Assembly: GCF_037042905.1 (NCBI RefSeq)
Contig: NC_087251.1
Coordinates: 20,524,001-20,588,000, forward strand
Direction of reading: 5' to 3'
DNA from: Lytechinus pictus
Lineage: Eukaryota
Length of the DNA stretch: 64,000 bases
In this document: positions 32,926 through 39,657 of the stretch, piece after piece
Layout: each line of letters begins with the position of its first letter
How positions within the stretch are numbered: the stretch's first letter is position 1
Made by a program: the position numbers and the translations under genes
The notes under the pieces: model-generated
What the model saw: the letters and a program-made list of their open reading frames with translations, nothing else
Databases searched by the model: none
Told to the model about the DNA's origin: nothing

Positions 32926-33883
32926 ATGTCTGGAAGTGTAAGAAAGCCTCCGAAGGATCAGATAGATCCAGTCGAGAGAAGAAAAGAAAGAGATTACAAG
33001 AAAGAAGCAGAGGAAGAAAATTTGTGGGAAAGCATAGTACAGCCAGCATTTGCGGAGTTTGCAGGAACCTTTTTTTACGCCTTCATGGTATGCCTGGCCG
33101 TTACAGCACAAGATGTACTGGAATATGCTATTGCAAGTGGTCTCGGAATAGCAGCACTTTGCATCAGTTTCGTCAATATCAGGTGATATAAAAATACATG
33201 TGAATGTGATAAAATATTGATAACATCGAAATAAATTGCATAGTAGTTACCGACGCAATTATCATTATTTCTGACGTAAATACGCATATACCCTTCTTTT
33301 GCAATTTTGACGATGTTTCCGGAATCTATTGTCGGATGTCTAAACAACTGATTTAATCATTAATATGGTTCGATTAACTATGTATTTTTATCAATTGGAA
33401 CTTTGTTAAAAGGTACATGCCTACATGCAATAGTTACAATGTCAGTTCGGACCGTTAACTGTCTTGCGCCATTTAAATTAGCAAAGGTCATATCATTACA
33501 TCCTGCAATGTTATTTCAAGAATCAGTCTAACCATCATTGCCTCTGTATATTATTGTCATAATTATATTGCATTTTGAACCTGAAGAAAGGATCAGATCC
33601 CAGATTATGAAGATCATCAAATTATTCAATTACATTGAATGCAACCTTTATCATATAACTCTTGTATTTGCGTTCACAGCTGGGGGCCCGGGTTCGATTC
33701 CCGGCAGAGACATTTTCGGCATCACTAAATTTTCCAAAGGGCAGGTAGCTCTGGGGAACCGTAAATTTAAGCTACGTCCACCATTTTTCTCTTCATTCAT
33801 TTCTTTCATAACATGTTTAAATACAAAAGTTGCTAAAGCTGTTGAACATGTTTATATATATTCACACACACACACACACTCAC

Positions 33884-33914
<31 letters not shown>

Positions 33915-36900
33915 GCCACTCAATGAATCATATTATAAATATATCCTATACATAAGATAAATTTATGGAAAATATTCGGGTCTTGTCAGCAATATCCCGC
34001 CACAAGTATGCCGAAATGTCATTCTGACTGACTAGATCTGTTGACTATAACGAAATTTTCATTGTTACACTCACACTCACACACACACACTATCTCTGTC
34101 TATCGCCCTCGATCTTCCCGCCCTTCCTCTATTTTTTTTCTCTTTCTCATATTCTTAGATTTCCTTTTCCCTCCCTTCCGTGCTACTTTCTGCATTGGTT
34201 AGTCAAAACGCATTGTTTTTTTTTTGTTACTTGGCCGCATTTATTAATTGGTTCATCATGATGGGGATGCATGTCATAATTTAATACATGCGTCCCTAAC
34301 ATGATAAATATGTATGTGTTTTGCTGTTTCTTATGATGTAGAATTCGTGTAAATTGAGCTTTTTAATTTGATATTAAATGTATTCTTATGTAAATTTTTG
34401 TAAAGGGTTATGCAATTCGGCTTTTCAGTCGTATATATACCCTTGTTGCAATAAACCGTTTTAAATAAATAAATAAAAACATATACAAATACATTGCAGC
34501 GGTGCGGATCGAACTTAATACAACGCAAGTTAAATTTATATAGCGTTCATTTATGTATATATAGGTTATGTTTATATGTATTTACATTTGACAGGGCTCC
34601 CTTGAAAAGCTGGCCAATTGGCTTGAACGAGACAACCCTGTCTTTTAAAGAAAACGTGAATAAATAAATAATAAATAAACAAATAAATCAGAAGCCATAA
34701 TCAGCGATAGTTCTCTATTTCACTTGTCCAAAATACAGTGGTGGTCACTTCAATCCTGCGATCAGTTTGGCAGCCTTCGTGTCTGGTGGGCTTCACATCG
34801 TCAATCTCTTATGCTATCTTCCTCTTCAGCTGGTAGGTGCCGTTCTTGGTGCAGCATTCGTAAAGGTAAGAATTGAAGCCTTTAATAATATTGATGTTCA
34901 AGAGCTCTGTTAGTCATTGTTCCGATGACACCAACTACTTTTGGCCCCATTAACCTCTGTCATATTCGATTTATGATTTTTCCAAAACTGACAGTTATAT
35001 GAAGATGATGATAACGATTGCATCACGTATAGGTTCATACTTCGAGTGCTACTGATATTTCGGCGGCTATATTCTTCCTCTTCTTCCCCTCATTTCACCC
35101 TCTTCATTATACTCGTTGTCTTCTACCTCCAATAGTCTTCCTCTCTTTTTCTTTTATCTTCTTGTCTTTCTCTTCCTCCTTCTTTTCACCCTTATCTACC
35201 TCCGCTCTCCTCTTCTTCCTTCTTCTGTGCCTTTTTCCACCCGTTTCTCCTCCTTTCAAGCTTCTTCTCCTGTTCTCTTCCTCTCCTCCTCTACCATCTC
35301 ATCATTTTTATAATTCTTTCTCTTCTTTTCTTTTTCTTCATTTTTGCCATTTGCCTCCTCTTCCTGCTTTTTTCTCATTCTTCCTCCTTCCCCTTCAGTG
35401 ATAAGCCTGATATTTTGAGAATCACCCATGGAATATTCATGTACATATTAATAAACATATAGTTAAATAAAAGAAAAAAGGTAATTTCCGCTCCTCTATT
35501 TTCAAATTGGCTCTTTTATGCCCCTCTTTTTTAAATCTTGGGTCTACAACTGCATGAAGTATTATAAACAAATCATAGATTTAAACAATAAGTAAATGAA
35601 ATGATTCTATAAATTAATAGGAAAAATATTTATATAAAATGGGGACAAGACAAAGCAAAATGGAGAAAGGTAGATGAATACTGTCCTTGCCACTGACTCT
35701 AAATTGTCTTACTGTTCTTCCAGGCCGCTCTCTATGAATCAACTTACGAGGAGATCAAGGGCGGAGCCTCTGTGTTCCGTGGCAACCATCTCGTCAATGG
35801 CTTCAACGACTGGATGAAGGTCAATAACTGGGATACCTCCCCATACCTTGCCATGATCACCGAGACCCTCCTTGCTACGATGGTTGTCATGGCATATCTC
35901 CAAGCCAACGTCGATGAGCGCCGGGCAGGCAAGAAGAAGGACCCGATGGTGTATGGCATAGCCATTGCTTCAGTGACAATTGCCTCGTAAGCATTCTCTG
36001 TCATTTCCTTTTATATCAATCAAAGTGTACAGCAATCCATATGTATAAAGTTAATTTATATTATTTTTCTCGATCTACATTACTCATATTGTCAAAGGAG
36101 TGTATTTTGACTATATCAGGGTGAACAAATTTTGACAGTCGAAAAACGGGACACTTTGAAGCCATACAGGATATTATATACAGGACCAAAATTTGGCAAG
36201 ATCTTACAGCAGTCTCCAAGATCACTGAAATTTGTCATCTCTGTGGAATGGTTAAGAAAGGAAAGACCCCTCAAAGAACTCTGAAAGTCTGATGGATATT
36301 TCTTGTCTTACTGGTCTGAGATTAGTCCTATAAAGATCTTTCAATGGTCTTTCAGAGATCTTTTATGCAACAAGTGATCTTCCAAAATTCTTTCCATGGA
36401 CTTTGCCTGGTCTTTCAATGATCTTTCGATGATCTCTCATGAGTCCTACAGTGAAATCTTGAGACTGCCGAAAGATCATGGAAAGACTAATCAGATCTTT
36501 GAAAGTTCATTGAAAGACCACTGACAGACTGCTGAAAGACCATCAAAAGACAATTTTCCTGTAAGACCGTTGAAAGACTGTTTTGAACCGTTTCAAAAAG
36601 TTTTGGGACACAAGAGGACCACGAAGACCATTAAAAGATCCATCAGGAATCGTGAAAGACCTCGGAGATCATTGAAAGTTCGTTGAAAGAACCTTGAAAG
36701 ATCAAGCAAGATTCATGGTCTTACAGCAGTCTTTCAGAGGTCTTGCTCTCTGTGGAATGGGGGTTTCACTTGTGAGAAAAACAGGCCTTGTGGACGCTCG
36801 GCTTGGTGGAAAGACCCGATGTAACATGCTTTTAAAGAAAGAATCAAGTATAATTATCATCATTTACCAATGGCTTTAAAATAATTTCAGTATCAACGTC

Positions 36901-39336
36901 ATTTCATAATCCCACGCCATTTTTGTTTCATTCAGATTCTACACAGCAGGAGGCGGCTTCAACCCTGCTGTGAGTTTTGGTAGCGCCATTGTTTCCGACA
37001 CATGGGATGCCCATTACATCTACTGGGTTGGACCCATGGCTGGAGCAGCAATAGCTTCACTTTTCTTCAGGTAATTTAACCCATTGCTTCCCCAATTCGG
37101 GAGGGCCTGTTCAAAGCGTGATTGAAGGAGAAGGAAACCCTGGAGAAATATTGATTTTAATGAATAGAGAAATTGGTCATGAAATGAAAGAATTATGAAA
37201 GTTTCACCACAATCACAATGTAATGAGAAAGTTAGAAAATTCTGAAATTTCAATTTAGTTATAATGGTGATTCTGACAATGAAAATGTTTCTTCAAACTG
37301 ACAGGTAGAAAAATAAAACTCTCCATACACTTTTTGCACAAAATTTAACCCACTTTCTCTCAAGGTACAGCTTGTCTCATTAGCCCAAGATACACAATGG
37401 GAAGATATATTTGACACTTCTCTTGAGTTCATTAAAAGACAAGCATCACCTCTATGACATGAGAGTTGTAAATTGGGATTTTTTAAACTTTCATAACTTC
37501 CTCATTTTGTAAAACTGATTTTGATGGAACTTTTTTTAATTGCTTGGAACTCTCTATTTTCTCTTTTCATTAAAATTGATATTTACCCACGGTTTCATTT
37601 TCCATTAAGAAACTTAAGAGATTCTCAAAGTCAGCTGGTAAATAAACAATTGAATGTTATCAAAAATAATCTTCAATTGAAAGAGAAGAGAGGTGCAAGT
37701 TATTAAAAAAAACATTTGATAAATGGCAAAGTATTGAATTTTGAAAATTCTTGATGTAAAATTTGAGGCAATATTCAAATGGAAATGTTGCATCATAATA
37801 ATAACATTTAGAAGAGCGTTCTCATCATGTTTTGAACACAAAAACTTCAAAATTCCTCGGTAATAACAGAGTGATTTCTCTGCAAAACTAGTCATTTTTT
37901 AGCAATATTGTAAATTTGGTTAATATGAGGAATTTGACGAGTACACAGAGTATTGATGCTTCAAACTTCATATCTTTTTATGGAACTTATTTTTGAAAAA
38001 AAATAGTATCTATTTTTCTGCCAATGTCTCATGAAGTGGTTATAAGAGGCTTAAAATTTCTTGAAAAGTTGAGCATATACAAGATTAGATGATACTTTTG
38101 TTGGCCCTCTGAAAAGCACACAAAAATGAGATAAAACTGAAGTTTTTATATACAAAATTGAAAAATAATAGTCTTTATTAATTTTGCATGAAACTTGATA
38201 TCTACGATTGATATCAAACATATTTGATATCTAAACACTGTTAGCATACACTGTGTAGTGCATGAGACATTCAAATAAACATTTTGTCTGATTTTTATTA
38301 CATAAGATTTAATACCAAGGCTGTGAAAAGAGTCTTTGCCTGAACATATTGAGTACTGTCCCATTTCTGATAGCCATTTTTTCTTTACCATTATTGGGGG
38401 CAAATAATTACTAAGAAATAAAATCATGTAATTAATTTGCATAATCATCATCTAACCAACAGTCAGTATTAAAACAAAACTTACTGATTTTTTCCTCCTT
38501 CAGCCTCACTCCACTCGTTATTTTCAATGAGATGAAATTTTTAAAAGCAACATCAAAACGTTGTTTACCATGTAGGCCTACCCTTCATTTTCTAGAATCT
38601 AAAGGCCCCTGTGAAGAACTCACATAAATTATAGAATAGCAACCTTGGCAGTACCGCTAGACAATATTGATATACACTCAAATTGAGAATAGAATAAATT
38701 GACGTTTGGTACAAAATTATAAAATCTCATATATATTGTACCAAATTTGATATTGTAATGTTTTTAACAGTGCTGTAAAAGGTAATAGAAGTATCAAACC
38801 AACTCTCTTTAACTTGCACACCTGGTTTGTTAGCCTTGGCTCAAACATTTTTTTTTTAAAGATGGGTTATTGGCTTGTCATATTACAGCTAAATGCTAAT
38901 CAAATATGCACTATTTGGCATCAAGGGGCTGCTTTGTTGGTTTATTTAAAGTACCTATGAAGAAGCGCACATATGGTGTGCTACATGTATCTTGGAATTA
39001 TCCCCATCCCCCCCAAAAAAATGACTCGTCTTGCTGCACACAAAAATACCTACAATGTATTCAACTCTAATATTTCAGCTGTTTTTTTTTCTTCATATTT
39101 TTATTGTCAAATCATCAGTCCTTTGAAATTGACAATATTTTTTTATATTTTTCTAAATATGATGAAAAGAAACTTAAAACTTGTTAATGACTATTTTCAC
39201 CTTTCTCACAACTTGAGTACCCTTTTATCTCCAGATTTGTTTCCCAATATCTTTTGACAATTTCTTTTGATTTCTTTTTCTTGTATCATCTTGTAGGATC
39301 TTGCTTGGAGATGAAGATCATCGTTTGCTGTGCTAG
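32926..39336 (+). CDS. AQP8: Aquaporin-8-like MIP channel, 5 exons, 273 aa
   Basis: Exons 32926-33182 (..[15 protein letters not shown]), 34739-34865 ([19 protein letters not shown]), 35724-35986, 36936-37070 ([19 protein letters not shown]), 39297-39336 ([13 protein letters not shown]). GT-AG introns, consistent phases, 822 nt. [11 protein letters not shown] and YWVGP signatures plus an AQP8-like C-terminus. Subfamily assignment is by recalled similarity. Confidence 0.9.
33670..33860 (+). mobile_element. tRNA-derived SINE-like fragment
   Basis: B-box in ccgggttcgattcccgg at ~33688-33704; no A-box or cloverleaf; followed by (CA)n/(TA)n. Confidence 0.4.
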
Positions 39337-39353
39337 GTTGCCCAAAGACACAC

Positions 39354-39657
39354 TGGCCCATATTCTGAACTCAAGTCTAATTCAAACTCTGGCCTAAAGT
39401 TGTGGTTTAACTATGGATAGCCAATTGCACCATTAATCTCTAGCATTAGAGGTTCACTTTATCAGCACATTTACTGCTCGATCCATTCATAACTGTCTGT
39501 GTATAATAACAAATAAAGTTTTCTTCACCATTGAGGCATAAGACAGACAACATGACAAACAAACAAAGTAAACAACATTATTGACATGTTTGGCTTCCCA
39601 TAATTTTTGAAGAATTAGACCATGGCCTAAGATAAACTGGACCTTGGAATATGGGCC
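39354..39657. mobile_element. MITE in the AQP8 3' UTR
   Basis: tggcccatattc...gaatatgggcca TIRs starting 17 nt after the stop codon. Confidence 0.65.

Follow-up and report, generated by a model that had tools for sequence, protein, structure and literature searches.

The window analysed here, a stretch of 64,000 nucleotides from contig NC_087251.1 of the sea urchin Lytechinus pictus, carries on its plus strand an AQP8-type aquaporin gene of five exons (32926-39336) in which the arginine of the selectivity filter is replaced by valine and the helix-2 histidine is missing as well. Judged from the sequence and by analogy with published channels, its product is probably a passive channel that admits, beside water, small neutral solutes such as ammonia, hydrogen peroxide and probably urea-sized molecules. 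Aquaporins lacking this arginine, including animal AQP8 paralogues, are already in print, and the surprise is therefore moderate unless ion conduction is shown. No published account of the filter of an echinoderm valine clade, or of its sister with a glutamate-arginine filter, was found in a search of mainly open-access literature. What stands out is that a replacement of arginine by valine, engineered in AQP1 to probe proton exclusion, is found here as a natural state kept in two echinoderm classes, and that sea urchins go further than sea stars in having dropped the histidine too.

Conceptual splicing of the five exons (Table 1) gives a product of 273 amino acids with zero internal stops, and all four introns are of the GT-AG type. 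The product is identical at 273/273 positions to the L. pictus RefSeq protein XP_054758705.1 (P0276, 'aquaporin-8-like'), in which the Pfam MIP domain scores 140 bits where the cut-off is 25. The product also shares 96.3% identity with the L. variegatus orthologue (P0001), and the urchin orthologues have 73-96% identity among themselves. Contigs of two runs from two studies (X1 and X15) contain all four GT..AG joints as modelled and cover exon 4, none of the runs that hold the gene being recorded as RNA. The raw RNA runs X19 and X20, each read to about 6%, have zero depth in the bins with exons 1, 2 and 4 and no read across a modelled splice joint; they are therefore uninformative on the valine codon, and expression of the gene is probably restricted by stage or tissue.

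The codon directly after the second NPA box is GTG (Val228), and no variant at this codon is among the difference rows listed for the contigs. By the genetic code, GTG differs from every arginine codon by at least two bases, so a single base error cannot account for the valine. While the missing spliced reads of X19 and X20 might speak for an artefact or a decaying gene, the two base changes needed, the valine in 11/11 orthologue rows, the open frame of 273 codons, the spliced contigs of two studies and the 73-96% identity among urchins speak against it; sequencing error, a mis-registered alignment and a relaxed pseudogene were accordingly rejected as having practically no chance of being correct. 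An earlier note on this DNA had read the motif as NPAV rather than NPAR in an AQP8-like gene with an S/T/G/V filter, and had taken the gene for an intact, specialised paralogue and not a pseudogene; all of this is borne out by the data given here and below, to which they add a sister that keeps the arginine and a clade shared with sea stars.

Table 1. Features of the aquaporin gene, numbered along the window
Feature	Position	Strand	Basis
Exon 1, with ATG and helices 1-2	32926..33182	+	gene model and spliced contigs
V55 codon, exon 1	33088-33090	+	read from sequence
Y67 codon, exon 1	33124-33126	+	read from sequence
S71 codon, H2 filter residue, exon 1	33136-33138	+	read from sequence
Exon 2, 127 nt	34739..34865	+	gene model and spliced contigs
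First NPA box, exon 2	34752-34760	+	NPA at residue 91
Exon 3, with extended loop C and helices 4-5	35724..35986	+	gene model, contigs and alignment
S144 codon, likely loop-C filter residue, exon 3	35769-35771	+	alignment; loop C poorly modelled
T213 codon, H5 filter residue, exon 3	35976-35978	+	alignment
Exon 4, with F217 and helix 6	36936..37070	+	gene model and spliced contigs
G222 codon, LE1, exon 4	36952-36954	+	gap-free count
Second NPA box, exon 4	36961-36969	+	NPA at residue 225
GTG, Val228, replacing the selectivity-filter arginine	36970..36972	+	Val in 11/11 orthologue rows
Exon 5, C-terminal tail and stop codon	39297..39336	+	37070-to-39297 joint in X1 and X15; agrees with P0001 C-terminus

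Filter residues and predicted pore

Counted without gaps from the asparagines of the NPA boxes, the filter tetrad consists of S71 (H2), T213 (H5), G222 (LE1) and V228 (LE2). The same columns of alignment A4 read H/I/A/R in 71/90 rows, mostly vertebrate AQP8, and the register can therefore be taken as correct. Where a canonical AQP8 filter would have a helix-2 His, a helix-5 Ile or Val, an LE2 Arg and an aromatic residue in loop C, this protein has S71, T213, V228 and S144. The most likely place of the fifth, loop-C residue is S144, since it directly follows an invariant Gly and a near-invariant Ala; the other register, obtained via AQP0, points to N153. As read from the alignment, all five filter positions are uncharged and non-aromatic under either loop-C register. 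No substitute arginine at an invariant column near the filter and specific to the valine clade was found among the echinoderm rows: the loop-C residue R147 is the same in all rows of both paralogues (20/20 echinoderm rows), and only H/R150, within the poorly modelled loop C, and K/R200, within loop D, are basic residues limited to the valine clade.

Aquaglyceroporins are marked by an Asp that immediately follows NPAR and by their own set of residues at positions P2-P5. Membership of this group was considered and rejected, GlpF and AQP10 being the weakest PDB matches and S229, A233, Y245 and W246 at P2-P5 following the TIP/AQP pattern as described in PMC4915720.

An AlphaFold model of the orthologue P0001 (96% identical; 90 sequences) has a pLDDT of 81.5 and shows the standard aquaporin fold, with six helices and two NPA half-helices. 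Its fold matches range throughout from Z 28 to 31.6, with AQP2 (4nef) at Z 31.6 (rmsd 2.2, 219 aligned), AtTIP2;1 at Z 30.0 and 7cjs at Z 29.4. Loop C (141-160) is poorly modelled (pLDDT 47-57) and is about 12 residues longer than that of vertebrate AQP8.

The number of side-chain heavy atoms at the four filter sites rises from 8 here through 12 in sea stars and 16-17 in the sister group to 18 in vertebrate AQP8. One helix turn outward from S71, position 67 is Tyr or Phe in 7/7 urchin valine rows and Ile in 13/13 sea-star and sister rows; position 55 of helix 1 is likewise Val in 7/7 urchin NPAV rows and Ala in the same 13/13, and both echinoderm groups have an aromatic residue or Met at position 217, which is Gly in vertebrate AQP8. 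Helix periodicity and known structures suggest that these three positions face the vestibule. Counted over eight positions that were picked after the alignment had been seen (the filter, loop C, 55, 67 and 217), the bulk comes to 28 heavy atoms here and 21 in vertebrate AQP8, or 28 there when the loop-C Phe is added by hand. Moreover, Y51 falls in the same alignment column as a Tyr in helix 1 of AQP0 that presumably narrows the pore of that channel. The earlier note had expected a wide and uncharged constriction; the lack of charge stands, while the width is weakened, as it considers four residues only and Y/F67 and V55, in the urchin rows without His, may refill the space.

Sister paralogue and known relatives

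Valine at LE2 is found in 7/7 urchin rows (Lytechinus, Strongylocentrotus, Diadema and Logan rows) and in 4/4 sea-star rows. The urchin filter reads S/A/C at H2, T at H5, G/A at LE1 and V at LE2, and that of sea stars (Asterias, Acanthaster, Patiria) reads H/V/G/V. Arginine, by comparison, occupies LE2 in 9/9 vertebrate rows and in 9/9 rows of a sister echinoderm group, which come from a crinoid, a brittle star, a sea cucumber, a sea star and the genome of L. pictus itself, and whose filter is E/I/A-G/R in all nine rows compared. The L. pictus member of this group lies on contig C10 (24794031-24801500, loci L016 and L017); it has an E/I/A/R filter and NPG as its first box, is 39.8% identical to the window gene and shares its four introns at equal positions and phases. 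Both genes have a second exon of 127 nt with the first NPA box, an exon length that the AQP8 genes of oysters are reported to conserve (PMC8925068). In the sister group, a helix-2 Glu facing the conserved Arg is kept in 9/9 rows from five echinoderm classes; it is likely to form an ion pair within the filter, unusual in itself.

A phylogeny of 134 rows was built with IQ-TREE under LG+G4 in a short search, with a midpoint root and with SH-aLRT values but no bootstrap. In this tree, the NPAV rows form one clade with a value of 98, the arginine group has 86 and both echinoderm groups together have 99; they share with vertebrate AQP8 one side of a short branch (98). The closest named relatives outside echinoderms are indeed AQP8: every one of the top hits in vertebrates is an AQP8 or AQP8-like protein, and those at E <= 1e-20 are AQP8 only. 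By its sequence, then, the window gene is of AQP8 grade by descent and not a canonical AQP8 by its filter. The placement fits a single change from Arg to Val after a duplication within echinoderms, and it agrees with the account of Finn et al. 2014 (PMC4245216), who describe 'two to three aqp8-like' echinoderm genes duplicated before the echinozoan-asterozoan split, in passages that list no filter residues for them. The orthologues, the alignment and the tree had been named in the earlier note as the places to look; valine turned out to be kept throughout the orthologue rows, and no canonical H/R pair appears in the filter.

The valine state is rare among close relatives. Specifically, the 102 single-domain representatives with both NPA boxes (from 148 new ids) comprise 99 with Arg, 2 with Leu and 1 with Val, the last being a sea-star orthologue; judged by the tree alone, the valine clade would have arisen independently of the Leu-type channels. 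A set of 61 NPAV rows was dropped as a measure of frequency, since many are tandem multi-domain proteins or half-matches in which the first NPA box is possibly mis-registered. Brittle stars, sea cucumbers and crinoids yielded no valine orthologue in a search that also missed the urchin valine representatives, and as searches were incomplete this is no evidence of absence.

Compared with vertebrate AQP8, an aquaammoniaporin or peroxiporin whose canonical filter is given as H-I/V-A/G-R (PMC13163493), the urchin gene has the same NPA boxes, invariant loop-C Gly, C-terminal GD motif and side of the tree, but is only about 35% identical, lacks the His, the Arg and the loop-C Phe, and has a longer loop C and an aromatic residue instead of Gly at 217. 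Plant TIP1 channels, with an H-I-A-V filter (PMC4915720), have undergone the same replacement of Arg by Val at one site and are nearly matched in their tetrad by the H/V/G/V of sea stars, whereas urchins share with them the Val only and lack the His as well. The resemblance is likely to be convergent: descent from TIPs is argued against by the position of the gene beside an echinoderm sister that keeps the arginine and shares its introns, in a tree without a named TIP row. Oyster Aqp8L4 and Aqp8L5, in which the filter Arg is replaced by Leu (PMC8925068; mentioned also in PMC12771848), are likewise invertebrate AQP8 duplicates without the arginine, in a subfamily with the 127-nt second exon. 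They differ, however, in having Leu, in a helix-2 Tyr reported to compress the pore and in being young, oyster-specific duplicates (PMC8925068), while the echinoderm clade has Val and spans sea urchins and sea stars. Other channels naturally lacking the arginine are Toxoplasma TgAQP (Val) and Trypanosoma TbAQP2 (Leu), the latter passing large drugs (PMC5436202), and human AQP11/12 (Leu; PMC6937295); these belong to other subfamilies and are likened here by their descriptions. TIP1 therefore stands as a valine exception, as the earlier note had it, but not as a lone case of arginine loss. The three natural states of one gene pair (E/I/A/R, H/V/G/V and S/T/G/V) form a series for testing the role of filter residues, and one that sits in a genetically tractable animal.

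Predicted permeation

The reading preferred here is that an AQP8 duplication inside echinoderms would have given rise to a copy that kept the arginine (E/I/A-G/R) and one that changed it to valine, sea stars retaining the helix-2 His (H/V/G/V, TIP1-like) and sea urchins losing it afterwards. The loss of His fits with the hydrogen bond that this residue forms to the Arg in TIP2;1 and in AQP8 models: AtTIP2;1 is described with a fifth filter residue in loop C and with its helix-2 His bonded to the Arg (PMC4814140), and AQP8 models have Phe as their fifth residue (PMC5816522). The filter plane would then be lined by the small hydroxyls of S71, S144 and T213, the carbonyl of G222 and V228, and would carry no fixed charge; further out, a collar of the aromatic residues Y67 and F217 would, together with V55, probably re-narrow the entrance, and cations would be excluded mainly by the two intact NPA boxes, leaving a proton leak that is modest at most.

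As for the solutes, AQP8 channels are reported to carry water, urea, ammonia and H2O2 (PMC13163493), and Val at the LE2 site is compatible with the TIP signature for H2O2 and urea (PMC4915720). By analogy, the product is likely to resemble the plant and parasite channels without arginine in passing small neutral molecules beside water. Permeability to ammonia is not assured, because the urchin protein has neither the helix-2 His nor the loop-C aromatic residue that ammonia-permeable channels are described as sharing (PMC4814140). Published mutants are instructive about width: AQP4 R216A and F77A/R216A gain urea and glycerol permeability, AQP4 H201A/R216A passes neither, and AQP1 R195V/A excludes both (PMC6937295). 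Since the AQP4 double mutant H201A/R216A and AQP1 R195V/A remain solute-tight, pore width does not predict solutes, and this weakens the suggestion of the earlier note that the channel may conduct larger neutral solutes; conduction of ions is only weakly suggested, with both NPA boxes intact.

If Y/F67, V55, F217, Y51 and the extended loop C made up for the volume lost with His and Arg, the product would be an ordinary or slow water channel that perhaps passes gas or H2O2 and has gained no larger solutes. The Tyr/Phe and Val of all seven urchin NPAV rows, set against Ile and Ala in the thirteen sea-star and sister rows, a bulk over eight positions close to that of vertebrate AQP8, the additional residues of loop C and the solute tightness of AQP4 H201A/R216A (PMC6937295) argue for such compensation, but the orientation of positions 55, 67 and 217 towards the pore comes from helix periodicity and known structures, and the retention of Val in urchins and sea stars beside an arginine-keeping sister suggests a distinct job; we regard this reading as unlikely, though worth keeping in mind. 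A channel that leaks H+ (or NH4+) at a useful rate, serving acid-base or ammonia handling in, for example, the gut epithelium, appears more doubtful still. As cited in PMC6937295 and PMC5436202, AQP1 R195V and H180A/R195V leak protons; the larval midgut and hindgut of L. pictus express an 'aquaporin-8' (PMC12516323), and the Diadema and sea-star rows have an Asp at loop-C position 153. However, the gut probe (XM_054907444.1) is not attributable to either paralogue, the two NPA boxes, in which PMC6937295 sees the chief barrier to protons, are intact, and the cited natural valine channels are described as solute and not ion channels. The conserved R147 of loop C, present in both paralogues, may moreover hold a positive charge near the mouth.

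Sea urchins calcify and do not silicify, which counts against a metalloid channel for boric, silicic or arsenous acid with a small, hydroxyl-lined filter like that of the rice silicon channel Lsi1. The Lsi1 filter (Thr65, Gly88, Thr181, Ser207, Gly215/216 and Arg222; PMC12978542) does find comparably small and polar residues at the matching sites S71, S144, T213 and G221/G222, and the model matches the fold of 7cjs (Z 29.4); but this match is no better than those to water channels, Lsi1 keeps its Arg and has Thr at the likely site of Val55, so that this reading is very improbable. Finally, there is a small chance, on a par with that of the proton or ammonium leak, of an echinoderm aquaporin, conserved from before the divergence of sea urchins and sea stars, in which protons or ammonium and also large neutral solutes pass five filter positions without charge, aromatic residue or His, paired with a glutamate-arginine sister. 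If the valine clade did conduct ions in this way, the pair would amount to a natural experiment on how cations are excluded, and might serve acid-base and ammonia handling in echinoderm epithelia.

Surroundings of the gene

A search of the L. pictus genome gave 15 MIP matches, on contigs C2, C1, C5, C7 and C10; C2 carries clustered NPAR-type aquaporin genes and C5 two loci with glyceroporin-like motifs. Among the database proteins, P0129 (with 4 MIP stretches), P0134, P0142, P0147, P0152, P0182, P0190, P0016, P0018 and others are about 470-1400 amino acids long and contain several tandem MIP domains, many with NPAV in full-length domain matches, i.e. tandem aquaporins without the arginine, while some half-matches may be mis-registered.

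Within the window, first mates of X19 and X20 (both stranded) lie on the plus strand at 38143-39347, over intron 4 and the last exon, with depth up to 8; this suggests a minus-strand transcript overlapping the end of the aquaporin gene, perhaps the 3′ end of a convergent neighbour. On the minus strand, 60047-60364 matches the eukaryotic Pus10 N-terminal family, though weakly (E 5e-4, short of the curated cut-off), and is probably an exon of a neighbouring PUS10 gene. Rfam has no match at the gathering score inside the aquaporin gene, and no tRNA was found by ARAGORN. In intron 1, about 15,000 reads per run match the short piece at 33670-33716 alone and continue unlike the window, with tRNA-like flanks; it is likely a tRNA-derived repeat fragment that catches abundant small-RNA reads from elsewhere. 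About 36150-36770 in intron 3 and 39395-39427 are taken up by multi-copy repeats, where contig depth is high and variant reads are numerous.
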